A stretch of 64,000 nucleotides of DNA from Clostridia bacterium (GTDB taxonomy: Bacteria > Bacillota > Clostridia > Christensenellales > CAG-1252), in the NCBI GenBank assembly GCA_024685775.1, contig JAIKVL010000016.1, positions 40,128 through 104,127 of the forward strand. Direction: 5' to 3'. The notes under the pieces were generated by a model. That model searched no databases. It saw only the letters and a program-made list of their open reading frames with translations, and was not told where the DNA came from. The position numbers and the translations under genes were made by a program. Below, piece by piece: positions 21,686-33,848 of this stretch; positions within the stretch are counted from its first letter, which is position 1, and each line of letters begins with the position of its first letter.

Positions 21686-23809
21686 TTACGAAAGAGAAAT
21701 CCTCATCGCGGGAAGGATGCCGCGGGACAGGACGTAAACGTCGTAATGCGATATAGCTCCGCTCGGATCCACGCATCTCGCGCGATGCGCGATTTCGTTA
21801 TTCGGAGAGCGAAGCCACCAATCACCGTTCCCCTGATCGTTTGCGTTCAAGCCATTTTTAATCGCGTAATCGGTCGCGGCGATCTTGCGATCGTCATTCG
21901 ATGAAAACCCGAGCGAAGAGTTCGTCGCTTCCGCATAACTCAAAAGGAAAAACAGGTCTTCCGTGTCGTCGCAAGCGTTCGGATTGCTTGCGTAGCCGGT
22001 GGAAGCCACGCCGTTATCCACCGTCGTTGACTCGATATATTCGAGTTGCGCCGCGGTAAACACTCGGTTTTTGAAATCCGAATTCAAATATTCACGAATG
22101 TCGCTATCTTTATAACCATTGGATCCGACGTCATACTTCCGCGCGTCCAAAACGCATTCGCTGATGAGGAAGAAGATTCCGCTTTGGTTCCTCGCAATAC
22201 GCCACTTGATCGGCTCGTACTTATAAACCGAAGTCTCGCCGTTCCTATAAATCGCGCGATAATTCGCGCCGTCGTAAAATACGTCGACGAAATAATAATT
22301 CTTATTCTCGGACAAGCGCCAAGAGAAAGCGTCATCCTCCGTCGGCAACAGACCTGCGCGGGCAGATACTTCTTCCGCCAAACTCGCGTCGGTCACTTTG
22401 GATTGAAGATACGTCCCGAAAAGCACGTACTGCCCGTTCGCAGCAGGTTCGCCCGCCGCGTTCACCCTTTGGATCATTTGATCGCCGCAACGGGTGCAAA
22501 CGCCGTCCGAATAATCGTGCGCGATCGCGCCGCAGTAGGAGCAAAAGCACCCGACGGACTTTTCATGCGAACACACGGAAAAAGACGCCGTATAGGTGAC
22601 GTTTTTTCTTCCCATATCGAAAGAATACGTCTTTTCCTTCGTCAATAGTTCTTCGCCGTCATACCAGCCGTTCCACAAATATCCCGCGTACGATCTCGCG
22701 GACAAAGTAACGTTTTCGCCCTCTCTTTTCTTTCTTTCGGTGATCTTGGTATACGTTCCCGCGTCTTCGAGATCGGTATTCGTCGAAACGGTATAGGCGA
22801 TAAAGCGCGCTTCCAAAGACGCCTCGCGCATCGGCATCGTAAACACGAATTCACCCTCTTGCGAGACCAAAGCATCGCCCTCATACCATCCGACGAAAGT
22901 ATATCCGTCATTCGGCGAAGTCCTGAGTTCGACTCGCGTTCCGGTCTTAACGAGGATATCGACGTACTTCGTAAAGAACCCGCCCGCCGTATCGTTCGTA
23001 GAAGTCGAGAAACGCCAACCGTCTTTCTTATCGAATATCGCCGTGTAAGACAAGTCCTTCGCAGGCATCTCGAACGTGTACGTCGGATCCGCGGAAACGC
23101 GGGACTCGCCGTCATACCAACCGATAAAGATATATTCTTCGCTCGGCTCCGCCGCCAACGTTACTTGATCCAAATAGGCGTACTCTTTATCCTTACAGCT
23201 CGTATAGGTTCCGCCCGCCTCATCGTTCACTTCCGTATTCAAGGTAAAGATTTGATTCGCGTATTTCGCGGTATAGGTCGAATCCTTCGCGGGCATATTG
23301 AACGTGTATTCGAGTTCGGCGGAAAGTCGCTTCGTCCCGTCGTACCAACCGACGAAATCGTAGCCCGTTTTAACGGTCGCGGTCAACGTTACGCTCTCGT
23401 CGAAGAGTTTTTCTTCTTTATCGAGCGCCGTGTATTCTCCCGCGTCGGGATTGCTGATCTGCGTCGAAAGTTTATAGCGCATTCTTTCGAATCTCGCCGT
23501 ATAGGTGACGCTTTTCGCAGGCATTTCGAACGTATAATTCAAATCCGAAGAAAGCAGGTCTTCCCCGTCGAACCAACCTGCGAAAGAATACCCCGTATTC
23601 GATAAAGCGGTCAAAGTCACGCTTTCGCCCGGCTTCTTAACTTCCGCGGAAAATTGCGTAAACGTTCCCGCATTCTCCGCATTGCTTTCGGTCGTTATCG
23701 TGTAGACTTTTTTCTTCCCCGACGAGCCGCCCTTACACGCGGTAAAAGTAACTCCGATCGCGAGAACGAGCAGCAGGCAAACCAAACAGAATACGAGCGT
23801 TTTTTTCAT
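21686..23809 (-). CDS. secreted lipoprotein with about 6 InlB-B/List-Bact-type repeats, a Cys cluster and a C-terminal DUF6273-like domain
   Basis: The signal peptide and lipobox are MKKTLVFCLVCLLLVLAIGVTFTAC. GGAGGAAGG lies upstream of ATG 23809. A ~70-aa unit recurs, of the form GY.F.GWYDG...S....YTFxMPAK..TYTA.F. A CSHEKSVGCFCSYCG...CTRCG cluster follows. The C-terminus reads EPIKWRI...WWLRSP. Confidence 0.75.
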   Translation of the reverse strand: MKKTLVFCLVCLLLVLAIGVTFTACKGGSSGKKKVYTITTESNAENAGTFTQFSAEVKKPGESVTLTALSNTGYSFAGWFDGEDLLSSDLNYTFEMPAKSVTYTARFERMRYKLSTQISNPDAGEYTALDKEEKLFDESVTLTATVKTGYDFVGWYDGTKRLSAELEYTFNMPAKDSTYTAKYANQIFTLNTEVNDEAGGTYTSCKDKEYAYLDQVTLAAEPSEEYIFIGWYDGESRVSADPTYTFEMPAKDLSYTAIFDKKDGWRFSTSTNDTAGGFFTKYVDILVKTGTRVELRTSPNDGYTFVGWYEGDALVSQEGEFVFTMPMREASLEARFIAYTVSTNTDLEDAGTYTKITERKKREGENVTLSARSYAGYLWNGWYDGEELLTKEKTYSFDMGRKNVTYTASFSVCSHEKSVGCFCSYCGAIAHDYSDGVCTRCGDQMIQRVNAAGEPAANGQYVLFGTYLQSKVTDASLAEEVSARAGLLPTEDDAFSWRLSENKNYYFVDVFYDGANYRAIYRNGETSVYKYEPIKWRIARNQSGIFFLISECVLDARKYDVGSNGYKDSDIREYLNSDFKNRVFTAAQLEYIESTTVDNGVASTGYASNPNACDDTEDLFFLLSYAEATNSSLGFSSNDDRKIAATDYAIKNGLNANDQGNGDWWLRSPNNEIAHRARCVDPSGAISHYDVYVLSRGILPAMRISLS

Positions 23810-23895
23810 CCTTCCTCCCAAAGAGCAAAACTCCCTTTATGCGGTTTTCTCTTAAAACGTCCTTTCTCGGCGAACGCCGAATCAAAACTTCTTTT

Positions 23896-23990: not shown

Positions 23991-24344
23991 TCAAAATCCG
24001 AGAAAAGAGACGCCCGCGTCGAAAACCGAAAGAATCTTTTTATTCCCGATCGAATAATAGACGATCTTCCCCTTTCTGCGGGTCTTTACGAATCTTAGGG
24101 AGCGAAGGAAGGCAAGTTGATGGGAAACCGTGCTTTGATTTTGCCCGAGCATCAGGCAAAGATCGGTCACGCACATTTCGGTAATGCAAAGGGAAGACAG
24201 GATACGGACGCGGGTCGCGTCGGAGAAGACCGAAAAAAGATCGGCGAGATCGGCGGCGACCTCGTTTTTCGGTAAATAGTATCGGACGACGTTCTGGTCG
24301 TGCGGGGAAAGGATCAGAGGTTTTCTCTCGTCAAGGGCGTTCAC
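23991..24344 (-). CDS. ArsR/SmtB family metalloregulator
   Basis: ATRVRILSSLCITEMCVTDLCLMLGQNQSTVSHQLAFLR is a wHTH with three Cys in the alpha3 region. The start is GTG at 24344. Confidence 0.85.
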   Translation of the reverse strand: MNALDERKPLILSPHDQNVVRYYLPKNEVAADLADLFSVFSDATRVRILSSLCITEMCVTDLCLMLGQNQSTVSHQLAFLRSLRFVKTRRKGKIVYYSIGNKKILSVFDAGVSFLGF

Positions 24345-24439
24345 AACTTTATCCTAATCGGCATATACCACATTGTCAACGCGAAAAAAAGGCGAAATCA
24401 CTCGCATAACGGGCGGTTTTGGCAGAAAGGGAGGATTTT

Positions 24440-24607
24440 ATGCAAAACGGTGGGATGCTTTTGATCTTACTGCTTTTATTGATCTACACGTTCGGCGGCG
24501 ACGGAAGCCTTACGAGCGAAAATCTGACGCTCATCGTCCTCGCCCTATCCTTCCTCGTTTCGGGCGCGCACAGCGGTTGCGGGTGCGGCGACTTGGCGGG
24601 CGTCTAA
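24440..24607 (+). CDS. small hydrophobic Cys-tailed peptide (55 aa), hypothetical
   Basis: ATG 24440 lies 5 nt after AAAGGGAGG. The sequence is MQNGGMLLILLLLLIYTFGG...LTLIVLALSFLVSGAHSGCGCGDLAGV, with two hydrophobic segments and a C-terminal CGCG. It is transcribed divergently from the ArsR gene. I recognise no homology, so the coding status is tentative. Confidence 0.4.
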   Translation: MQNGGMLLILLLLLIYTFGGDGSLTSENLTLIVLALSFLVSGAHSGCGCGDLAGV

Positions 24608-25140
24608 CGGCGGCTCGCGAGAGCGTTCCCGAAACGGCGTTCCAACATCCGATACAGCCCCGCATAGGCAAAATCGAACAGGATGAAGACGAGCGTCAGC
24701 CCGAACGCGAGGACAAGATACTTTCCGTAATTCGGGAGCGCGTCGAGGATCGGGAAATCTTCGAGCGTCAAGCTCATCAAAAAGAAACAACCGAAAAAAG
24801 AAGCGTTCGCAAAGACGACTTCAATCGGCAGACAGAGAATCGATTTTTTCAGATATTTCCGAAGATAATAAAACAAAATCGGATAAGGTCCGAACATCAG
24901 CGCGAACGGCAAAAAAGAAAGATAGCCGACGAATAAAAAAGAAAGCGCCGCCGAAGCGACGTAGGACAGGATCGCGCCCCTGCCGCTCCCCGCGATCAGG
25001 GGAAGCGATAAAGCGACCGACGAAAGCGCGTAAAAGGCGACGGTCGCAGGCTCGACGAAATGCGCGAGAACGACCGCAATCACGGCGAGAGCCGCCGTAA
25101 CGCCCGAGATCGCAACTTCTTTCGCCGAGATTTTTTTCAT
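24604..25140 (-). CDS. hypothetical polytopic membrane protein (178 aa)
   Basis: Trimmed to ATG 25140 (MKKISAKEVAISGV...), which overlaps the upstream stop as TAATG. The protein has about 5 TM segments. The removed 109-aa extension is Arg-rich and overlaps the upstream gene. Confidence 0.6.
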   Translation of the reverse strand: MKKISAKEVAISGVTAALAVIAVVLAHFVEPATVAFYALSSVALSLPLIAGSGRGAILSYVASAALSFLFVGYLSFLPFALMFGPYPILFYYLRKYLKKSILCLPIEVVFANASFFGCFFLMSLTLEDFPILDALPNYGKYLVLAFGLTLVFILFDFAYAGLYRMLERRFGNALASRR

Positions 25141-25769
25141 TAACAGCAGCGGATCAGATCGCCGCCCATACATTCGCAGCAACAGTCGGCGCAAAGAAGA
25201 CTCATACAGCAATCGCTTCCGTCCACGCGCGGACGGGAACGCCCCATTTCCTCGTAGATATCGTAGCCCGCGCGACCGGCGTTCGCCCCGGAAGCCGCTC
25301 CGCCCGAAGTCTCTCCGTAAGAAGAAGCGTCGTGTTGCTTCATCCTCTCCATCGTCTCTTTGTACTTCTCGTTTTGAGGATCCATATTGATCGCCATATC
25401 GAGCTGAGCTTTTGCCTCGTAGTACCAGCCTTTCGCGTGATAGACGGCGGATTGATAATAGTGCCAATCCGCGTCGCGCTCGGAGATCTTATCCAGCGCG
25501 GCTTGCGCTTCGCCGATCTTTTTCGCTTTCAAAAGAGCAACGACGTGCTCGTAGATCCCTTTGACTTCCGCGCCGGAAGAAAGCCTCTCCATAACTTCGC
25601 GATAGGCGTCTTCGAGCTCGGAAAGTTTTTTCGCCGCGCGTTTTCCGCCGTCTCCCTCGACGTGGATCTCTTGGCGATATTCGTTTTTCAGGCGTTCGTA
25701 AGCCTCTTGAACTTCGGCTTGCGTTGCGTTCTCGTCAACGCCCAAAATTACAAACGGATTTTTGAACAT
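25140..25769 (-). CDS. J-domain-like (no HPD) / TPR-like protein with poly-Cys C-terminal tail
   Basis: ATG 25769 has GGAG upstream. The N-terminus NPFVILGVDENATQAEVQEAYERLKNEY is J-domain-like, but the HPD position reads QEI. The middle is TPR-like (WHYYQSAVYHAKGWYYEAKAQLDMAINMDPQN). The C-terminus is DCCMSLLCADCCCECMGGDLIRCC. Confidence 0.65.
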   Translation of the reverse strand: MFKNPFVILGVDENATQAEVQEAYERLKNEYRQEIHVEGDGGKRAAKKLSELEDAYREVMERLSSGAEVKGIYEHVVALLKAKKIGEAQAALDKISERDADWHYYQSAVYHAKGWYYEAKAQLDMAINMDPQNEKYKETMERMKQHDASSYGETSGGAASGANAGRAGYDIYEEMGRSRPRVDGSDCCMSLLCADCCCECMGGDLIRCC

Positions 25770-26608
25770 TTTCCATTCTCCTTCTTTGAAATCGCGTCGA
25801 ACCGACTGCGAAGCCCGTACCACAAGACGTTCGTGACGATCCCTTCGCTTTCCGAAAGCTTGATCTCCCGATAAGCGATTTCGATCGCGCGAATGATTTC
25901 TTCCATTAAAAACCGAACGTCCTCGCCGTGGTTTTTCATCAGGTCGCTCGCGGATTTTTCCCCGAACGTCCGATAAAAAGCGTTAAACCTTTTCTTCTTT
26001 ACGTCTTGATCGTAATCGTCCAGCGCGTCCATATAACAGACGTATTTTCCGAGGTGATATCCGAGCCTTTCGATGGAATCGGAGTTTTTTTCTCCCGCGA
26101 GAAAACCGAACGTCTTTTTCATCATATCCGAAAAAGGTTCCGCCGCCGCGTCAAGCCCGCCTCCCGCTTTCTCTTCTTCTCTTTGACGAAGGAAGCATTC
26201 GTCCGCAAATGCCGCGATCTCTGGCGATTTCGCCCTCGCCTTCCGAACGTTTCGAGAAAAAAGAATGCGCCTGAAAAGATTCGTCTCGCCGTCTTCACGA
26301 TCGTCTTTGAGTTTCAATCCGAGCAAGATCAAATTGAGTCTCGCGACTTCGAGCGAAGTCTCTGAGACGTCCGCGACCGCGCGTTTTTTCGGATTCAAAA
26401 TACATCGCTTTTGAACGATCTTCGGCTTTTCGCCGCGGATATCGGCGAAGAAAAGATTGATAAACGCCGCGTCGTAATTCACGGACAATCGAGCCGTCTG
26501 CCCCGCGCTTTTTTTCATCGCGTGGCACAGCCCACAGTAATAGGCGCGAAACAAAGCGTAATCGCGCATATAAAGATTGGGTTTATCGGGAAGGACGTAT
26601 CCGAACAT
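25748..26608 (-). CDS. DUF5685-like protein
   Basis: MFGYVLPDKPNLYMRDYALFRAYYCGLCHAMKK...LSVNYDAAFINLF matches my recollection of the DUF5685 N-terminal signature. Its ATG overlaps the trpS stop as TGATG. Confidence 0.65.
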   Translation of the reverse strand: MFGYVLPDKPNLYMRDYALFRAYYCGLCHAMKKSAGQTARLSVNYDAAFINLFFADIRGEKPKIVQKRCILNPKKRAVADVSETSLEVARLNLILLGLKLKDDREDGETNLFRRILFSRNVRKARAKSPEIAAFADECFLRQREEEKAGGGLDAAAEPFSDMMKKTFGFLAGEKNSDSIERLGYHLGKYVCYMDALDDYDQDVKKKRFNAFYRTFGEKSASDLMKNHGEDVRFLMEEIIRAIEIAYREIKLSESEGIVTNVLWYGLRSRFDAISKKENGKCSKIRL

Positions 26609-27591
26609 CAGTCAGCGACGAATCCGATCTTCTTTTTGACCTTGCGAAGCGTTCGGAATGCGATGCGGGAAGCCTTCTCGGCGCCTTCTTTCATAATGCG
26701 TTCGAGCTCCGCTTTATCCGCCATAAAGGTCGCGTACTTTTCCTGCACGGGACGAAGCGCGTCCGCGACCGCCTCTCCGACCGCGATCTTGAAATCGCCG
26801 TAGCCTTTTCCTTCGAAGCGGTTTTCCGCGCTTTCGATCGACTCTCCGCTGAACGCCGAATAGATCGAAAGAAGGTTCGAGATGCCGGGTTTATCTTCGG
26901 AAAAGACGATCCTGTTATCGCTGTCCGTCACCGCGCGCTTGAATTTCTTCATGATAAGATCGGGCGGATCGATAATGGATACCGTAGCGTTCTGATCCTT
27001 ATCGGATTTGCTCATTTTTTCGAGCGGGTTTTGCAGGCTCGTAATCTTCGCGCCCTGCTTGGGAATAAAGGGCTCGGGGACGACGAAAGTTTCGCCGTAA
27101 CGATTATTGAACCGAATCGCAAGATCGCGCGCGAGTTCGAGATGCTGCTTTTGATCCTTTCCGACGGGGACGAGATCGGTCGCGAATAAAAGAATGTCCG
27201 CCGCCATAAGGACGGGATAGGTCAAAAGACCCGCGTTAATATTATCCTCGTTTTTACGGGATTTATCCTTGAACTGCGTCATCCTTTCGAGTTCGCCGAT
27301 ATAAGTCAGGCAGGAAAGGATCCAGCAAAGTTCGGAATGCTGCGGAACGTTGGACTGAACGTACAAAATGCTCTTTTCTGGGTCGAGACCGCAAGCCAAA
27401 AACTGCGCGAAGAAAGAATACGTCCTCTCGCGAAGCTCTTGGGGGATCTGTTTGACCGTCATCGCGTGTTGATTCGCGACGGCGAACAGGCATTCGTTTT
27501 CTTTTTGCAATTCAAGCCAATTTTTGACCGCGCCGATGTAGTTTCCGATCGTAATGCAACCGGTGGGCTGGATGCCGCTGTAAATTCTCAT
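26608..27591 (-). CDS. trpS: tryptophan--tRNA ligase
   Basis: The N-terminus is MRIYSGIQPTGCITIGNYIGAVKNW. The KMSKS motif is present as EKMSKSD. It overlaps the thrC stop as ATGA. Confidence 0.95.
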   Translation of the reverse strand: MRIYSGIQPTGCITIGNYIGAVKNWLELQKENECLFAVANQHAMTVKQIPQELRERTYSFFAQFLACGLDPEKSILYVQSNVPQHSELCWILSCLTYIGELERMTQFKDKSRKNEDNINAGLLTYPVLMAADILLFATDLVPVGKDQKQHLELARDLAIRFNNRYGETFVVPEPFIPKQGAKITSLQNPLEKMSKSDKDQNATVSIIDPPDLIMKKFKRAVTDSDNRIVFSEDKPGISNLLSIYSAFSGESIESAENRFEGKGYGDFKIAVGEAVADALRPVQEKYATFMADKAELERIMKEGAEKASRIAFRTLRKVKKKIGFVAD

Positions 27592-29075
27592 TGTCTATCC
27601 ACTCTCTCCATTACTTTTTGCTTGATCTCGCTTTTTTTCAAAACGTCGCGGAAACGAACTTCGTAGGTTTCGAGCGCCGCGATCCCTTCGGGGATCTCCA
27701 TTCCGCTCAGGGAATGCAATTTCTTCACCGCTTTGAACGGATCTTCCACGCGGCTTTCGCCGATCGCTTCGTAGACGTCCTGCGCGAATTTATACGGGCT
27801 CGCCGTGGACAAGACGACGACGGGCGTCTGATCGTTCGTGATCATCATATAATTATCGTAGACCGAAAGCGCGACGGCAGTATGCGGATCGACGACGTAA
27901 CCGTACTCGTCGAAAGCGTTGCTCATCGACTCCATCGTCTCTTCTTCGTCCGCGAAGCCGCCGTAAAAGACGCCGAAAGCGCGGCGGATCACCGACAGAG
28001 GAACGGAATACTTGCCCGTTTCTTTGAGTTCCGCCATCAATTCTTTGACCTTTTCTCCGTCGCGATCCGTCATTTCGAAGACGAGTCTTTCGAGGTTGGA
28101 GGAGATCAAAATATCCATCGACGGCGAGATCGTCTTGTGAAAATCGCGCGTCGCGTCGTACTCACCCGAATTGAAGAAATCGGTCAAGACGTTATTGATA
28201 TTGGACGCGCACAACAGTTTATTGACGGGAAGCCCCATCTTAAACGCATAATATCCCGCGAGGATATCGCCGAAGTTTCCGGTCGGAACACAGAAATTGA
28301 CTTTTTCGCCTTCTTTGATCTCTCCCGAGGAAAGCATATCGGCGTACGCCGAGAAATAATAAGTGATCTGCGGGAGCAATCTTCCCCAGTTGATGCTGTT
28401 CGCGGAAGACATAACATAGCCTTTTTCTTTCAGCTCTTCCGCGACCGCCTTATCGGTAAAGATCGTCTTAACGGCGGTTTGCGCGTCGTCGAAATTGCCG
28501 CGGATCCCCGCGACGTAAGTATTCTCCCCGCCCGTCGTCACCATTTGAAGTTTTTGCATATCGGAAACGCCTTCATCCGGATAGAAGACCATGATCTCCG
28601 TTCCCGCGACGTCCTTGAACCCTTCGAGCGCGGCTTTTCCCGTGTCGCCGCTGGTCGCGACGAGGACGAGCGTCTTCATCTTCTCCCCTCTCTTTTCGCG
28701 GCAAGCGGAAATCAATTGGGGAAGGACGGTGAGCGCGACGTCCTTAAAGGCGAACGTCGGGCCGTGCCAAAGTTCGAGGATGAACGCGCCCTCGTCGATC
28801 TTGGTCAAGGGGCAAGCGTCCTCGTCGTCGAAACGGGAGTAAGCGCGATTCGCGATCGCGAGAAGCTCTTCTTCGGAAAACTCATCCAAATAAAGCCCCA
28901 TCACGAACGCCGCGCGCTCCGCGTAGGTCATTTCTTCCATATTCCTGATGTCTTGCATCGTGACTTGCGGAAAACTTTCCGGGACGAAAAGACCTCCGTC
29001 CGGGCTTATCCCCGTCAAAATCGCTTCCGTGCCACTCACGGAATGACGTGCGTTCCTCGTGCTGATATATTTCAT
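27588..29075 (-). CDS. thrC: threonine synthase
   Basis: 495 aa. The N-terminus is MKYISTRN. The PLP-lysine context is GPTFAFKDVAL, and SGDTGKAA is also present. Confidence 0.9.
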   Translation of the reverse strand: MKYISTRNARHSVSGTEAILTGISPDGGLFVPESFPQVTMQDIRNMEEMTYAERAAFVMGLYLDEFSEEELLAIANRAYSRFDDEDACPLTKIDEGAFILELWHGPTFAFKDVALTVLPQLISACREKRGEKMKTLVLVATSGDTGKAALEGFKDVAGTEIMVFYPDEGVSDMQKLQMVTTGGENTYVAGIRGNFDDAQTAVKTIFTDKAVAEELKEKGYVMSSANSINWGRLLPQITYYFSAYADMLSSGEIKEGEKVNFCVPTGNFGDILAGYYAFKMGLPVNKLLCASNINNVLTDFFNSGEYDATRDFHKTISPSMDILISSNLERLVFEMTDRDGEKVKELMAELKETGKYSVPLSVIRRAFGVFYGGFADEEETMESMSNAFDEYGYVVDPHTAVALSVYDNYMMITNDQTPVVVLSTASPYKFAQDVYEAIGESRVEDPFKAVKKLHSLSGMEIPEGIAALETYEVRFRDVLKKSEIKQKVMERVDRQ

Positions 29076-29080
29076 TTTTT

Positions 29081-29497
29081 TTATTTTACCTTTTCGGAAT
29101 CGTAAGAAGAAAGAAAGGAGGGAAGGACGTCGGAGCTGACGCTGAGGACGATCTCCATCGCGCTGTTTTTGCTCGCTTTCGCGATCTCGTCATAGAAGAA
29201 TTGCATATCTTCGGGTTTCTTACCGGTGACGCGATGCGCGCCGTCGACGTACAGCATATCGATATCCGAGTTGGAAGCCAAAACGCCTTTGACGAAACCC
29301 GCGAATTGTTCTTCGCTTCCGACGGCGAAGTTTTCGACGTTGATGAGCCTGATATTGTAGTTAAGCTCGAACTTATAGCGATCGGTATACGTCAGAAAGA
29401 CGATGCTCCCCGAGCTCTTCTCGACCATTTCGTTCGCTTCCGCGATGATCTTTTGCGTTTTGCCGCTTCCTTTCGCGCCGTAAATAATTCTTAACAT
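29081..29497 (-). CDS. minimal P-loop NTPase, hypothetical (138 aa)
   Basis: Walker A is GAKGSGKT. A Walker-B-like segment is IDMLYVDGAH. AAAGGAGG lies upstream of ATG 29497. Confidence 0.6.
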   Translation of the reverse strand: MLRIIYGAKGSGKTQKIIAEANEMVEKSSGSIVFLTYTDRYKFELNYNIRLINVENFAVGSEEQFAGFVKGVLASNSDIDMLYVDGAHRVTGKKPEDMQFFYDEIAKASKNSAMEIVLSVSSDVLPSFLSSYDSEKVK

Positions 29498-29583: not shown

Positions 29584-30981
29584 TTACTTTTCTCCGCCGA
29601 GCTTAACGAATTTCTCGTACAGCACCGGATCCGCTTCTCGGACGAGCGCGTCGAGTTCTCCGTCGCTCATCGCGGGGACGCGGCCGCTTGCGTAAAGCTC
29701 GTCCACCTTTTGCTTGACCGCGGCGATAATCGGGTCGGTCTTTTTGACTTTCTCCTCCTCGGGAAGGGAGAAATTATTGTTGATCCAGTAGGCGATTCCC
29801 GCGAGACCCGAGTTATTGTCGACGCAAACCGTCGGGGGACGATTCAAGATCTTCGCGGTGTTGAAGATATTGTAGATCTCCTCGTCTTTCATCAACCCGT
29901 CGACGTGGACGCCGGCGCGCGTTACGTTGAAATCTCTTCCGACGAAGGGGGTACGCGGCGGGATCTTGTAGCCGATGTCGCGCTTAAAGTATTCCGCGAT
30001 CTCGGTGATGACCGAAAGGTCCATACCGTCCGTCGTCCCTTTCAGGGAAGCGTACTCCACCGCCATCGCTTCAAGAGGGCAGTTACCGGTGCGTTCGCCG
30101 ATACCGAGGAGCGCGCAGTTGACGGCGGAACAGCCGTACAGCCAAGCCGTGGCGGCGTTCGTTACGACCTTGTAGAAATCGTTATGCCCGTGCCATTCCA
30201 TTTGCTCGGAAGGAACTTCGCCGTAACGCCATAAGCCGTAAATCGTCCTCGGGACGCTTCTCGGAAGAGAAGAGCCCGGGTAAGTAACTCCGTAACCGAG
30301 CGTGTCGCACGCGCGGACTTTGATCGGGATTCCGCTCTCTTTGGAGAGTTTCATCAATTCGCGGACGAAAGGAACGACGTAACCGTAGGAGTCCGCCCTC
30401 GTGATATCTTCGAGGTGGGCGCGGGGAACGATCCCTCTGTCGAGCGCTTTTTTGATAATGGACAAATATTTATCCATCGCTTGCGCGCGCGTCAAATGTA
30501 ATTTATTGAAAATGTGGTAGTCCGAACAGCTGACGAGGACGCCCGTCTCTTTGATTCCCATTTCTTTGACGAGCTCGAAATCGGAATCGGTGGCGCGGAT
30601 CCAGCTCGTGATCTCCGGGAACTCGTAGCCGAGCTCTTGGCAAGCGCGAACCGCCGCTCTGTCTTTCTCGCTGTAAAGGAAGAATTCGCTTTGTTTGACG
30701 ACGCCTTTTTTACCGCCGAGGCGATGCAGCATTTTGTAAAGCTCGACGATCTGCTCCACGGTAAAGGGCTGCATGGATTGCTGACCGTCGCGGAAGGTCG
30801 TGTCGGTGATCCAGAGGTTTTCCGGAGTGTTCATCGGCACGGTGAAAAAGTCAAACGCCGTGCGGGGAACGTTTTCATAGTCGAAAAACTCGCGGAAAAG
30901 ATTGGGTTCCGCCACGTCTTGCAAACTATAAGAATACGTCTGCTCCTGCAACAAATGCTTATGCGAGTTGTAAAAAATCAT
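29584..30981 (-). CDS. HMGL-like (DRE-TIM) aldolase family enzyme; homocitrate/isopropylmalate-synthase relative, possibly Re-citrate synthase
   Basis: Motifs are ITDTTFRDGQQS and WHGHNDFYKVVTNA (the HxH metal site). It is 465 aa with no LeuA-type C-terminal regulatory domain. The Re-citrate synthase assignment is an inference from size and the clostridial context. Confidence 0.65.
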   Translation of the reverse strand: MIFYNSHKHLLQEQTYSYSLQDVAEPNLFREFFDYENVPRTAFDFFTVPMNTPENLWITDTTFRDGQQSMQPFTVEQIVELYKMLHRLGGKKGVVKQSEFFLYSEKDRAAVRACQELGYEFPEITSWIRATDSDFELVKEMGIKETGVLVSCSDYHIFNKLHLTRAQAMDKYLSIIKKALDRGIVPRAHLEDITRADSYGYVVPFVRELMKLSKESGIPIKVRACDTLGYGVTYPGSSLPRSVPRTIYGLWRYGEVPSEQMEWHGHNDFYKVVTNAATAWLYGCSAVNCALLGIGERTGNCPLEAMAVEYASLKGTTDGMDLSVITEIAEYFKRDIGYKIPPRTPFVGRDFNVTRAGVHVDGLMKDEEIYNIFNTAKILNRPPTVCVDNNSGLAGIAYWINNNFSLPEEEKVKKTDPIIAAVKQKVDELYASGRVPAMSDGELDALVREADPVLYEKFVKLGGEK

Positions 30982-30993
30982 ATCTGCCTCCTC

Positions 30994-32067
30994 TTACGAT
31001 CGGTCGCTGTTTTTCAAAAGCTCGTTCTGCTCGTTCAAAGCGAGCGCTTCGATCATTTCAAGCATATCGCCGTCCAAAAACTGTTCCAAACTGTAAAGCG
31101 TCATTCCGATGCGGTGATCGGTCACGCGCCCTTGGGGATAATTGTAGGTGCGGATGCGCTCCGACCTGTCGCCGCTTCCGACCTGCGCCTTTCTCTTCTC
31201 CGCGTACTCCTTATCCGCTTGCGAGCGATAATAGTCGTACAGCTTCGATTTCAAAACCTTCATCGCTTTCTCTTTATTCTTGATCTGCGATTTTTCGTCC
31301 TGACAGGTGACGACGAGTCCCGTCGGGATATGGGTGATGCGGATCGCGCTTTCGGTCTTGTTGACGTACTGCCCGCCCGCGCCGCCCGCGCGATAGGTGT
31401 CGATTTTCAGATCGGCGGGATTGAAAGAAGCGTCCACGTCTTCCGCTTCGGGAAGGACGGCGACCGTCGCGGCGGAAGTGTGGATCCTGCCCTGCGACTC
31501 GGTCGCGGGAACGCGCTGCACGCGGTGCGCGCCGCTCTCGTATTTGAGTTTGCTGTACGCGCCTTTACCCGACACCAGAAACACCGCTTCTTTTACGCCG
31601 CCGAGATCGGTCATATTGATATCGACCTCTTCGGTCTTCCAACGCATCCGCTCGGCGAAACGCATATACATCCGCATCAAAACCGCGCCGAAAAGGCTCG
31701 CTTCTTCGCCGCCCGTTCCCGCGCGGATCTCGATGACGACGTTTTTATCGTCGTTGGGATCCTTGGGAAGGAGCTGGATTTTCAACGTCTCTTTGAGCTT
31801 CTCCATCTTCTCTTTCGCTTCCTGCCTTTCTTCTTCGACAAGCGCCAAAAGATCGGGATCTTTTTCTTCTTTCAGCATGCGCTCGCAATCGGCTTCGTCC
31901 TTTTCGGCGCGAAGGTAGGCGTCGTAGTTCACCATGATCTCCGAAAGAGCCGCGTGCTCCTTCGCAACCTTCTGCCACTCGTCCTGCCGAGCGATTATTT
32001 GCGGATCGGCGAGCTTTTCATTCAGCTCGTCGAAACGGATTTTCATCTTTTTCAGTTTCTCGATCAT
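30994..32067 (-). CDS. prfA: peptide chain release factor 1
   Basis: The PAT tripeptide sits in [13 protein letters not shown]. The GGQ loop is [23 protein letters not shown]. It overlaps the upstream stop as ATGA. Confidence 0.95.
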
Positions 32068-33848
32068 TCTATCTCCACGGTCACCACTCTGTCGTGCGAT
32101 TCAAGGTCTTTGGTCACCGTCACTTTCCCCATCGTCTCAAAGAGCGCGCGAACCGCTTCTCCCTGATCCGCTCCGATCTCCATAATGAGCGCGCCGCCCG
32201 CATTCAAATGCGCGCCGACGCTTTCGCGGATCGCCCTGTAACAGTCGAGTCCGTCTTCGCCGCCGCAAAGCGCGAGAAAAGGCTCTTTGCGAACGTTCGC
32301 GTCCAATTTCTCGATCTCGGCGCGGGGGATGTAGGGAGGATTCGCCGTTATCAAATCGAACGAACCTTCGATCGAAGCGAAAAGATCGCTTTGGATAAAG
32401 GTCACGTTCGCGCCCAAGGCTTCTTTATTTTCCCGCGCGAGAGACAATGCTTCTTCGCTGACGTCCGACGCGAAGACTTCGGCTTTCGTCTTTAACGCGA
32501 GAACGAGAGCGATCGCGCCCGTCCCCGTGCAAATATCCAAAACGCGCTTTCCTTCCGAAAGGTCGCGCTTCAAGGCTTCTTCGACCAAAAACTCCGTGTC
32601 ACCGCGCGGGATCAATGCGCGCGCGTCCGTCTTGATCGTCACGCCGTAAAAGGAAGTCTCGCCGAGGACGTACTGCAAAGGTTCGCCCGCTCCGACTCTT
32701 TTCGCGGCTTCTTTGATCGAGTTCGTGGCGGATTCGTCGATGAGTTCCGTCGTCGCGAGTTCGCTTCTCTCGACTTTGAGATAAAAAGCGGAGATCCAAT
32801 CGACGAGCGTTTCCGCTTCGTCAGACTCCGTTATGTACGACAACGCTTCGCGGCGAACGAGGCGATAGTCTTTGCGAACGTTGAATTTTTTGGTGGGGAT
32901 GGTCTCGTCCGCGTCCATTTCCATAACGGTCTTAAAGGACGTAAGCGAGACTTCGAGCATCGAATCGTCCGGCTCGCGGGTCGTTAAAAGCTGAAACCAA
33001 AGACCCGGCTTTTTCAAAATGCGGACGAAGGGATTATCGAACTTCGCAAGCCCTTTCAAAACCTCGTAAGAAACGCCGGCGACGACGGGAAGCAAAGCAA
33101 GCCTCGTCACGAAACGAAGCAAGAAGGAAAGCATCCTGTTTCCGACGTTATCAAACGCGGGAAGAAACGCGCTTGCGAGGACGCTGACGAAAACGGTGAT
33201 CACGAGGAAGCTCGTCCCGCAACGATCGTGCAGACGGCTCATTTTGCGCGCGTTCTCGACGGTCAGTTCTTCGCCCTGCTCGAAACAAGTGATGACCTTA
33301 TGCTCCGCACCGTGATACATAAACACGCGTTTGATATCGGGAACGAGAGAGACGGCGAAAAGATAGCCCAAAAGGATGATCAGGCGAACGCCGCTTACGA
33401 CGAGATTTCTCCAAACGTAATGGACGCCCTTGAATCCGGGAATATACTCGAAAAGCGTGACGACCCCGACGGGAAGCGCGACGAAAAGCCCGATCGCGAA
33501 GACGACGCCGAGAAGGACGCCGATAAAGATCGCGATATCCATGACGCTTTTTTTGCTCCGCTCCGCGAGCCAAAGCTCGAATTTGGAAGGCTCGCCCATA
33601 TCTTCGCCGTAAAGTTCGGCGGAACGAGTCAAAACTTTCGACCCGACGATCATCATAGCGAAAAAGTTGAGAAAACCGCGGAGGACGGGAACTTTTTTCC
33701 ACCACTTCGTTTCTTGGGGAATACGCTCCGTTTCCACCTCGATCCTTCCGTCGGACGTGCGGACGGCTGTGGCGACGCTTTTCTCGCCGCGCATCATGAC
33801 GCCTTCCAGTACTGCCTGACCTCCGATCTTGGACACGAATTTTCTCAT
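32064..33848 (-). CDS. prmC: fusion protein: DUF1385 membrane domain (aa ~1-310) plus release-factor glutamine N5-methyltransferase PrmC (aa ~320-594)
   Basis: The N-terminal part reads [14 protein letters not shown]...YHGAEHKVI...DRCGTSF, interleaved with TM helices. The C-terminal part reads [13 protein letters not shown]...LIPRGDTE...[13 protein letters not shown]...ITANPPYI. It is one uninterrupted 594-codon ORF. Confidence 0.85.

Follow-up and report, generated by a model that had tools for sequence, protein, structure and literature searches.

We describe here a module of three genes in which a protein of the family DUF5685 and a cysteine-rich tail appear to form the functional core. 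The module lies on the minus strand of a stretch of 64,000 nucleotides from a Clostridia bacterium (Christensenellales, CAG-1252; assembly GCA_024685775.1, contig JAIKVL010000016.1, positions 40,128 to 104,127), which we call the window throughout. Gene A, directly downstream of trpS, encodes the DUF5685 protein; gene B encodes a protein with a J-like N-terminus, a tetratricopeptide-repeat (TPR)-like middle and a poly-Cys tail; and gene C encodes an integral membrane protein. The three genes recur together far beyond chance. DUF5685 is predicted to have a class-I isoprenoid-synthase fold, that is, an all-alpha fold similar to that of the isoprenyl diphosphate synthases of the trans type (trans-IDS). 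The distribution of the tail is complementary: in Clostridia it belongs to a separate protein, and in Actinobacteria it is found on DUF5685 itself. As an explanation we tentatively favour a metal-thiolate arm that serves DUF5685, which we regard as possible rather than probable.

A profile search with DUF5685 found relatives in at least 584 species-representative genomes, of which the 80 closest were fetched. The synteny counts given here are based on these 80 genomes plus the loci that were reached from homologues of B. Gene B lies directly downstream of DUF5685 in every locus with room for it (84/84), and gene C follows B in 79 of 81 loci. The arrangement thus recurs in at least 84 loci, mostly from species-representative genomes. 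Immediately upstream of DUF5685 we find trpS in 67 of 78 loci, often overlapping and across several divergent clades, with thrC upstream in 42 of 69; an ArsR-family gene lies downstream of the trio in 9 of 73. Elsewhere the trio is located between addAB and the V-ATPase operon, adjoins the gene for ribosomal protein L33, precedes a tRNA methyltransferase gene or shares its context with cdaA and yicC. It is also present in a cultured species, Subdoligranulum variabile.

An earlier reading of the window, made by a model from the letters alone and called the sequence-only reading below, had suggested that the three genes act as one unit, and had named co-occurrence in other genomes as the deciding test. 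The families do co-occur in the proportions given above, and their synteny is kept in several unrelated genomic contexts. The proposed coupling to thrC and trpS holds in part: adjacency to trpS is common, but the trio is also found without trpS. No functional reason for this adjacency is apparent to us. A role in tRNA prenylation by way of trpS was considered and rejected, as nothing speaks in its favour and trpS is dispensable for the arrangement.

Since the trio sits inside a long run of unrelated housekeeping genes, it could be argued that A, B and C are merely co-transcribed neighbours with no joint function. The constant adjacency of A and B, the near-constant presence of C, the variety of contexts and the fusion of the tail to A in another phylum all speak against this. 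We give such a reading next to no chance; synteny and fusions effectively refute it.

Protein A matches the Pfam family DUF5685 (PF18937) over profile positions 1-271 of 272 with 210.4 bits (cut-off 26.7; E = 4.5e-62). The start MFGYV and the motif YYCGLCH, both pointed out before, are confirmed. An AlphaFold2 model of A was built from 67 sequences (predicted local distance difference test, pLDDT, 92; predicted template modelling score, pTM, 0.90). In a Foldseek search of the PDB with this model, the top 50 matches are all proteins with an isoprenoid-synthase fold, with template modelling (TM) scores up to 0.60 and probability 1.0. Among them are MoeN5 (0.56/0.60), geranylgeranyl, hexaprenyl and octaprenyl diphosphate synthases, terpene cyclases, a CrtM-like enzyme and UbiA. 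The prediction of the fold follows from the uniformity of this hit list together with the presence of two Asp-rich motifs.

In the model, three helices separate the two helices that carry these motifs. By helix order, and not by superposition, we take this layout to be the one known from trans-prenyl synthases, where helices D and H carry the first and the second Asp-rich motif. Each of the aspartates D102, D106, D194, D197, D198 and D202 is invariant in the 84 A proteins (84/84), and the same is true of E146, N209 and N260; R40 is kept in 83/84. The cysteines C25, C28 and C69 are likewise found in 84/84 each and are invariant across Firmicutes and Actinobacteria. D102 and D106 are also kept in Actinobacteria, as are most of the invariant residues of A. 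According to the model, the N-terminal region (MFGY...YCGLC...C) with its three cysteines contains a beta-hairpin. At the other end A has a conserved basic tail, which is disordered in the model (pLDDT below 50 for residues 278-286), and about half of the clostridial A proteins have one to three extra cysteines in their own C-terminal tail.

The N-terminus of the window B scores 21 bits against Pfam DnaJ (PF00226), below the cut-off of 27.8, and a profile made from HPD-less B homologues alone matches solved DnaJ J domains with E = 8e-6. The HPD tripeptide between helices II and III of J domains is needed for the stimulation of Hsp70 ATPase activity (10.1101/2022.02.28.482344). It is absent throughout the first 80 residues of the window B. 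The sequence-only reading had reported its replacement by QEI; the loss is real and there is no shifted copy, but the aligned residues are R32-Q33-E34. As the HPD is lost, the window copy is unlikely to act as a classical stimulator of Hsp70.

The B family comprises 1504 homologues in 90% clusters and 1013 representatives at 50% identity; our counts on HPD and tail refer to 129 full-length representatives. The HPD is kept in 27 of these, which match Pfam DnaJ with E = 1e-15 to 1e-18 (58-65 bits) and occupy the same A-B-C arrangement. Intermediate states at the HPD position (SAD, QED, NPD) exist as well. Judging from these sequences, the window B is probably a degenerate descendant of a J protein, and since homologues with a bona fide J domain sit in the same trio, the ancestor was probably a real co-chaperone. 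The earlier statement that the J-like protein is probably not a classical co-chaperone is therefore appropriate for the window copy, but not for those relatives that keep the HPD.

The TPR-like middle of B, also noticed before, is recovered by Pfam only below threshold. It matches TPR proteins in the PDB with E = 7e-5 to 1e-2, and W102, L92, A126, P131 and Y136 are conserved within it. A low-complexity linker leads from this region to the tail.

The tail of the window B contains nine cysteines and not ten, as had been counted, and these are all the cysteines of the protein. The motif DCCCECMGGDLI.CC is invariant in 16 B homologues, and the canonical tail C.DCCCECMGGDLI.CC is found in 23 HPD-bearing and 29 HPD-less members of the family. 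Clades that share DCCCECMGGDLI.CC are only about 30-35% identical elsewhere, with the non-Cys residues of the tail strictly conserved. At least six cysteines occur within the last 30 residues of 116 of the 129 representatives, and 113 of the 129 have a Cys among the last three. The canonical tail is acidic and flexible, consists of Cys plus Asp, Glu and Gly, and terminates in Cys; that of the window lacks Trp. Other B clades have hydrophobic Cys-rich tails, e.g. QMGG..C..C...C....C..C....CC.CR. Co-variation of A with the type of tail was examined and set aside. Four A columns, including C281, split the loci with a canonical tail from the others, and we judged this to be phylogenetic because a distant locus with a canonical tail (L085) lacks C281 and several loci with other tails have it.

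In Actinobacteria, DUF5685 itself ends in a tail rich in Cys, Asp and Gly. This is the case for four out of four genome or plasmid copies, from Nocardia sp. PE-7, Nonomuraea gerenzanensis, Tsukamurella tyrosinosolvens and Nocardia farcinica (an example is ...WCDGGDCGDCCCGDGCCDCS). When metagenomes were scanned with an alignment of these four proteins, 80 loci with 74 complete genes were obtained. Among the complete genes, 70 have at least six cysteines in the last 40 residues (median 15), and 70 have a Cys among the last three. The fused tails carry 10-20 Cys in 40 residues, together with Asp, Glu and Gly, and are strongly acidic. No B-like or C-like gene was found within 2.5 kb of any of the 74 complete metagenomic genes, and one clean actinobacterial locus had no informative neighbours. 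Because the tail is fused to DUF5685 where no J-like gene is nearby, we infer that the functional core consists of DUF5685 plus the poly-Cys tail, and the J/TPR body and the membrane protein would be lineage-specific additions to it.

These fusions also bear on another explanation, namely that B is a non-covalent adaptor or chaperone. In that case B would bind A, and perhaps C, through its TPR-like domain and help in folding, assembly or membrane targeting, and the tail would be a mere membrane-binding or oligomerisation element with no chemistry on or through it. TPR-like domains commonly bind the tails of their partners. The HPD-bearing members of the family are bona fide J proteins, A does have a conserved basic tail that is disordered in its model, and the membrane partner differs between lineages (see below); all this would be in agreement with an adaptor. 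On the other hand, Actinobacteria keep DUF5685 and the tail alone, with no J or TPR part, so it is the tail and not the chaperone body that is the indispensable partner. Furthermore, the strict conservation of the non-Cys residues in DCCCECMGGDLI.CC argues for a specific site and not for a generic anchor. We consider an adaptor of this kind improbable.

The third protein has about six membrane helices in its AlphaFold2 model (pLDDT 85.5), one more than the approximately five of the sequence-only reading. The only PDB structures that reach a TM score above 0.4 with this model are S components of energy-coupling factor (ECF) transporters. The best of them is TmRibU (0.59/0.61), and the best Foldseek E-value, 0.42, is not significant. 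The window C matches no family in Pfam or NCBIfam, and two of its homologues have weak matches to DUF2232. Among homologues from distant trios the identity is 25-31% and a motif F-G-x-Y recurs, and their comparison did not reveal standout conserved polar pocket residues. Neither ecfA/ecfT nor other ecf genes were seen in the neighbourhoods examined.

The membrane partner of A and B varies between lineages. In Pusillibacter faecalis a RseC_MucC protein (L094:4586-4996) precedes A and B, and there is no C after them. In two faecal scaffolds that are Lachnospiraceae-like, the pair is preceded by a membrane protein whose zinc ribbon is of the double-CxxC type (L097:5571-5984 and L098:350-793), and C is absent. 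RseC_MucC is a Cys-rich family associated with Fe-S clusters and redox reactions.

Taking these observations together, the explanation that we favour is a tail that acts as a metal-thiolate arm of the Zn, Fe or Fe-S type. This arm would dock on, load or complete the three-Cys site of DUF5685, while the Asp-rich motifs of DUF5685 would serve to bind, at the membrane, Mg2+ together with a diphosphate, for which a prenyl or polyprenyl diphosphate is the most plausible candidate. The J/TPR body of B would be the carrier and adaptor of the arm, and ancestrally it would have coupled the arm to DnaK, in the way HscB couples IscU to HscA; the window copy, without the HPD, would act without stimulation of Hsp70. 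The product of gene C would be the membrane dock, a place that may be taken by the RseC-like or the zinc-ribbon membrane protein in other lineages. That there are exactly three invariant cysteines in A hints at a site in which one of the ligand positions is either open or shared, and the combination of Cys with Asp, Glu and Gly and a terminal Cys appears typical of metal-thiolate sequences. The RseC-like neighbour fits a redox role, and in the clade of the window the ArsR-family gene downstream would fit as well. A Zn(Cys3)-activated thiol alkylation, with the three cysteines of A as the catalytic site, was also considered. The helix order suggests that the cysteines and the diphosphate site are not adjacent, and we make no such claim.

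Several points weigh against the metal-thiolate arm or against parts of it. The fold of A is a match of structures only, with Foldseek E-values of about 1e-2 and TM scores of about 0.55-0.60, and the sequence methods that we used reveal no link to isoprenoid enzymes. A Pfam scan of 67 A members returned only DUF5685, with no polyprenyl_synt, terpene synthase or SQS_PSY match at E up to 10. Scanning the window protein against NCBIfam and PHROGs yielded nothing meaningful, and a profile search of the PDB with A found designed helical repeats alone, a compositional artefact. An alignment of A with E. coli IspB by hhalign had a probability of 0.3% and is not significant; its sole aligned stretch, which pairs the second motif of A with the second Asp-rich region of IspB (FQLIDDLLDYNAD), may be a weak hint. 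Moreover, in 65 of 84 clostridial loci the tail is of the hydrophobic type (e.g. WCSQCFSFCYTFLCVNCLFNLCCNCR), and looks more similar to a membrane-associating cysteine string than to a metallothionein. We know of no isoprenoid-fold enzyme that needs a thiolate metal site. Finally, because the HPD has been lost in most lineages, coupling to DnaK cannot be essential to the core function.

The main alternative is S-prenylation. Here DUF5685 would be a trans-IDS-like prenyltransferase on the pattern of ComQ/ComX and move prenyl groups from a prenyl diphosphate onto the cysteines of the tail, and the result would be a lipid-anchored J/TPR adaptor at the membrane beside C, a bacterial counterpart of farnesylated Ydj1 or of the palmitoylated cysteine-string protein. 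DUF5685 would then be the first bacterial protein-cysteine prenyltransferase, modifying the tail of its partner J protein or, in Actinobacteria, its own. We think that this is rather unlikely, and the claim of a first such enzyme is doubtful to the same degree. The predicted fold of A with both Asp-rich motifs invariant is what one would expect of such an enzyme, and so is the gene order, in which A is directly upstream of B and overlaps it, with the conserved element of B at its extreme C-terminus. The high proportion of B representatives with a Cys within the last three residues (113/129) points in the same direction, given that endings such as -CC and -CXC resemble the prenylation motifs of Rab proteins. 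Many clostridial tails are hydrophobic, rich in Cys and similar to cysteine strings, and a membrane protein is almost always encoded alongside. However, the fused tails of Actinobacteria, with up to 20 Cys in 40 residues, are strongly acidic, and they would make DUF5685 a self-prenylating enzyme without an obvious payload. A shows no link at the sequence level to ComQ or polyprenyl synthases. In addition, the trans-IDS-like peptide prenyltransferases that have been characterised all modify Trp and not Cys (PMC13290415).

An enzyme gene that overlaps a downstream gene with an unusual conserved C-terminus, followed by a gene for a membrane protein, is also reminiscent of ribosomally synthesised and post-translationally modified peptides (RiPPs). 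B would be the precursor with a Cys-rich C-terminal core peptide, modified by A and released or exported via C. The leader of this precursor would be a folded J and TPR protein of about 185 residues, though, and in the contexts examined there is no protease, ABC exporter or other RiPP enzyme. The genes travel with the housekeeping genes prfA, thrC and trpS, and the fusion of the tail to the enzyme in Actinobacteria fits poorly. A RiPP-like system is thus very unlikely.

We were not able to find a functional study of DUF5685 in the literature that was searched; the family is mentioned once, in passing, in an in-silico survey of hypothetical proteins of C. difficile. Full-text searches found nothing on bacterial J proteins with poly-Cys tails, nor on the trio as a module, in line with the earlier statement that no function had been described for such a complex. 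New here are the predicted isoprenoid-synthase-like fold of DUF5685 with its two Asp-rich motifs and three cysteines, the S-component-like fold predicted for C, and the argument from the fusions for DUF5685 and the poly-Cys tail as the functional core. Should the tail turn out to be an arm for a metal or an Fe-S cluster, DUF5685 and its tail would make up a metallochaperone-enzyme pair of a new kind, and no enzyme of the isoprenoid fold would have been known before to have a thiolate metal site. Should it instead accept prenyl groups, the module would be the first system for protein S-prenylation in bacteria, with the first trans-IDS-like prenyltransferase that targets Cys. The module is very widespread and unstudied, and it has cultured carriers.

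Carriers of DUF5685 are common among the Clostridia of the human and animal gut, e.g. Christensenellales and Oscillospiraceae (Subdoligranulum, Pusillibacter), and are also found in soil Actinobacteria. The presence of the module in Actinobacteria gives no support to sporulation, which had been suggested as a candidate role. An origin from mobile elements was rejected: there are matches to only 2 phage and 4 plasmid records, of which the phage records are unverified scaffolds with bacterial housekeeping genes and the plasmids are mostly secondary chromosomes. The two phage records, MT835652.1 (L097) and MT835850.1 (L098), are both labelled "UNVERIFIED: Bacteriophage sp.". By eye they contain housekeeping genes (folC-like, EF-P, rpiB-like) together with the DUF5685-J pair, so that a bacterial origin of these fragments is more probable than a phage one.

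In the window, nine genes are arranged head to tail on the minus strand, from the DUF1385-PrmC fusion to gene C, and are tightly packed (Table 1). The junctions within the trio are a 22-nt overlap between A and B and a 1-nt overlap, TAATG, between B and C. All coordinates and junctions that had been reported, with overlaps of 1, 22 and 1 nt from trpS onwards, were reproduced on rechecking. An Rfam scan of 20-36 kb found no T-box and no other family, and sites resembling promoters and terminators were not more frequent than in shuffled sequence. The nearest relatives are Christensenella-like metagenome-assembled genomes (MAGs), and a MAG recorded as "Clostridia bacterium" encodes a protein identical to C.

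Table 1. Coordinates of the genes and protein features discussed in the text (window positions, unless a locus number is given).
Feature	Position	Strand	Basis or remark
DUF1385-PrmC fusion	32064-33848	-	
prfA	30994-32067	-	
HMGL-like gene	29584-30981	-	
138-aa open reading frame	29081-29497	-	between HMGL-like gene and thrC; without Pfam match
thrC	27588-29075	-	overlaps trpS by 4 nt (ATGA)
trpS	26608-27591	-	overlaps gene A by 1 nt (TGATG)
Gene A, DUF5685 protein, 286 aa	25748-26608	-	Pfam PF18937 and AlphaFold2 model
A, region with three invariant cysteines: C25, C28 (YCGLC), C69	26402-26536	-	
A, first Asp-rich motif, D102-D-R-E-D106 (DDxxD)	26291-26305	-	C-terminal end of helix 83-105
A, second Asp-rich motif, D194-ALDDYDQ-D202 (DAxDDxDxD)	26003-26029	-	C-terminal end of helix 177-197
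Gene B, J-like / TPR-like / poly-Cys-tail protein, 209 aa	25140-25769	-	homologues and synteny
B, J-like domain, residues 1-62	25584-25769	-	Pfam DnaJ 21 bits and profile matches
B, HPD position, R32-Q33-E34	25668-25676	-	alignment with HPD-bearing homologues
B, TPR-like helical region, residues 72-145	25335-25556	-	sub-threshold TPR_19, TPR_2
B, poly-Cys tail, DCCMSLLCADCCCECMGGDLIRCC	25143-25214	-	9 Cys in 24 residues
Gene C, integral membrane protein, 178 aa	24604-25140	-	AlphaFold2 model and synteny
Actinobacterial fusion genes	L093:5001-6008, L095:5001-6179, L101:2914-4077, L102:3001-4002		metagenomic: L103-L182

Some further observations concern the neighbourhood of the trio. Just downstream of gene C, at 23991-24344 on the minus strand, is the gene of an ArsR-family regulator (helix EMCVTDLC), and divergent from it, at 24419-24607 on the plus strand, an open reading frame (ORF) for a membrane protein of about 60 residues that ends in a CxC motif (CGCG). 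A matching pair is found in locus L001 (8129-8458 and 8551-8730), where the membrane ORF ends in CFC. In the same locus a 137-aa ORF (2159-2572) lies directly upstream of thrC; its size and position match those of the 138-aa ORF of the window. ORFs of this 137-aa type in Christensenella-like loci have weak matches to AAA_22 and SLFN-helicase. Further downstream in the window, at 21686-23821 on the minus strand, is a gene whose 711-aa product starts like a signal anchor and contains five divergent InlB B-repeat (Flg_new_2) domains, with DUF6273 at its C-terminus. In Pusillibacter faecalis, ispD and ispF of the methylerythritol phosphate (MEP) pathway (L094:1-849) share the strand of DUF5685 and lie about 4 kb upstream of it, which could be a coincidental clustering of housekeeping genes.

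The B family contains some oddities at the N-terminus (P0056, P0300, P0306, P0369). Some members keep the TPR-like region and the tail and have other N-termini, such as DUF4250, a fragment of the membrane family DUF2079 or an unknown region, and in one case a J-like N-terminus is joined to an ABC ATPase. Several of them are located on short contigs and may be artefacts of assembly or gene calling. In the "90% identity" cluster of P0273, a protein of 215 residues, many proteins of 174 residues are listed as well, which are neighbouring products of the C family; the cause seems to lie in the cluster table and not in biology.

How does the trio compare with known systems? Its parts each fall into a known superfamily by sequence or by predicted fold, with the TPR-like and S-component-like assignments being weak. 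The combination matches no described system, and the trio could not be assigned to the ComQ/ComX systems, the cysteine-string proteins or the ECF transporters. It resembles ComQ-ComX (and also PalQ and the P domain of ChrPC), the trans-IDS-like peptide prenyltransferases of Bacillota, in that an enzyme with Asp-rich motifs and an isoprenoid-synthase fold, predicted in the case of A, is encoded directly upstream of a gene whose product has its relevant element near the C-terminus, and in that the next gene encodes a membrane protein (comP in the one case, gene C in the other). The comparison of the gene order with A-B is based on comQ and comX being adjacent on one strand (PMC4008528). The differences are considerable, however. 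A has no detectable similarity to ComQ (IPR033965) or polyprenyl synthases and adds three invariant cysteines. B is a J/TPR protein of 200 residues and not a secreted pre-peptide, and the tail of the window has no Trp acceptor. The trio has no kinase or response regulator, and prenyl transfer by A is hypothetical.

Among the trans-prenyl synthases and MoeN5 we find the best structural matches of A (IspB, 3wjk, and MoeN5, 6j8w; TM scores 0.54-0.60). The DDxxD of A likewise stands at the end of a long helix; four helices further on, the second motif again occupies a helix end. Unlike in these enzymes, the second motif of A reads DAxDDxDxD; identity to A is 10-15%, there is no Pfam or hidden Markov model link, and the N-terminal beta-hairpin with three cysteines has no counterpart. 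For protein C, the similarity to ECF S components (RibU, FolT, ThiT) and DUF2232 consists of a length of about 175 residues and, in the model, six helices. In contrast to S components, C has no adjacent ecfA/ecfT and is replaced in some lineages, and the Foldseek E-values are 0.4 or higher.

With the cysteine-string protein DNAJC5 and with Ydj1, B has little more in common than the order of a J domain, a linker and a dense run of Cys or a C-terminal Cys motif; the B profile weakly matches the J domain of DNAJC5 (E = 3e-3). In DNAJC5 and in farnesylated Ydj1, the Cys motifs tether the co-chaperone to membranes. These two are eukaryotic proteins. The window B lacks the HPD, B has a TPR-like middle, and the canonical bacterial tail is acidic with conserved non-Cys residues. 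To our knowledge, cysteine strings are palmitoylated by DHHC enzymes, which bacteria do not have.

The HscB-IscU-HscA system is similar in that a specialised J protein is coupled to a Cys-based carrier of metal clusters that serves a client, a role that is putative for B. Beyond the J domain there is no relation in sequence or domains. In B the Cys element belongs to the J protein, as its disordered tail, the HPD has been lost in most B lineages, and the client would be DUF5685. Finally, the tails can be compared with metallothioneins and with the Cys/His-rich metal-binding tails of metallochaperones (SlyD, HypB, UreE). They are alike in being Cys-rich, of low complexity and carried by a protein that could use or deliver a metal. 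Many clostridial tails differ from metallothioneins by being rich in Leu, Phe, Met, Tyr and Trp.

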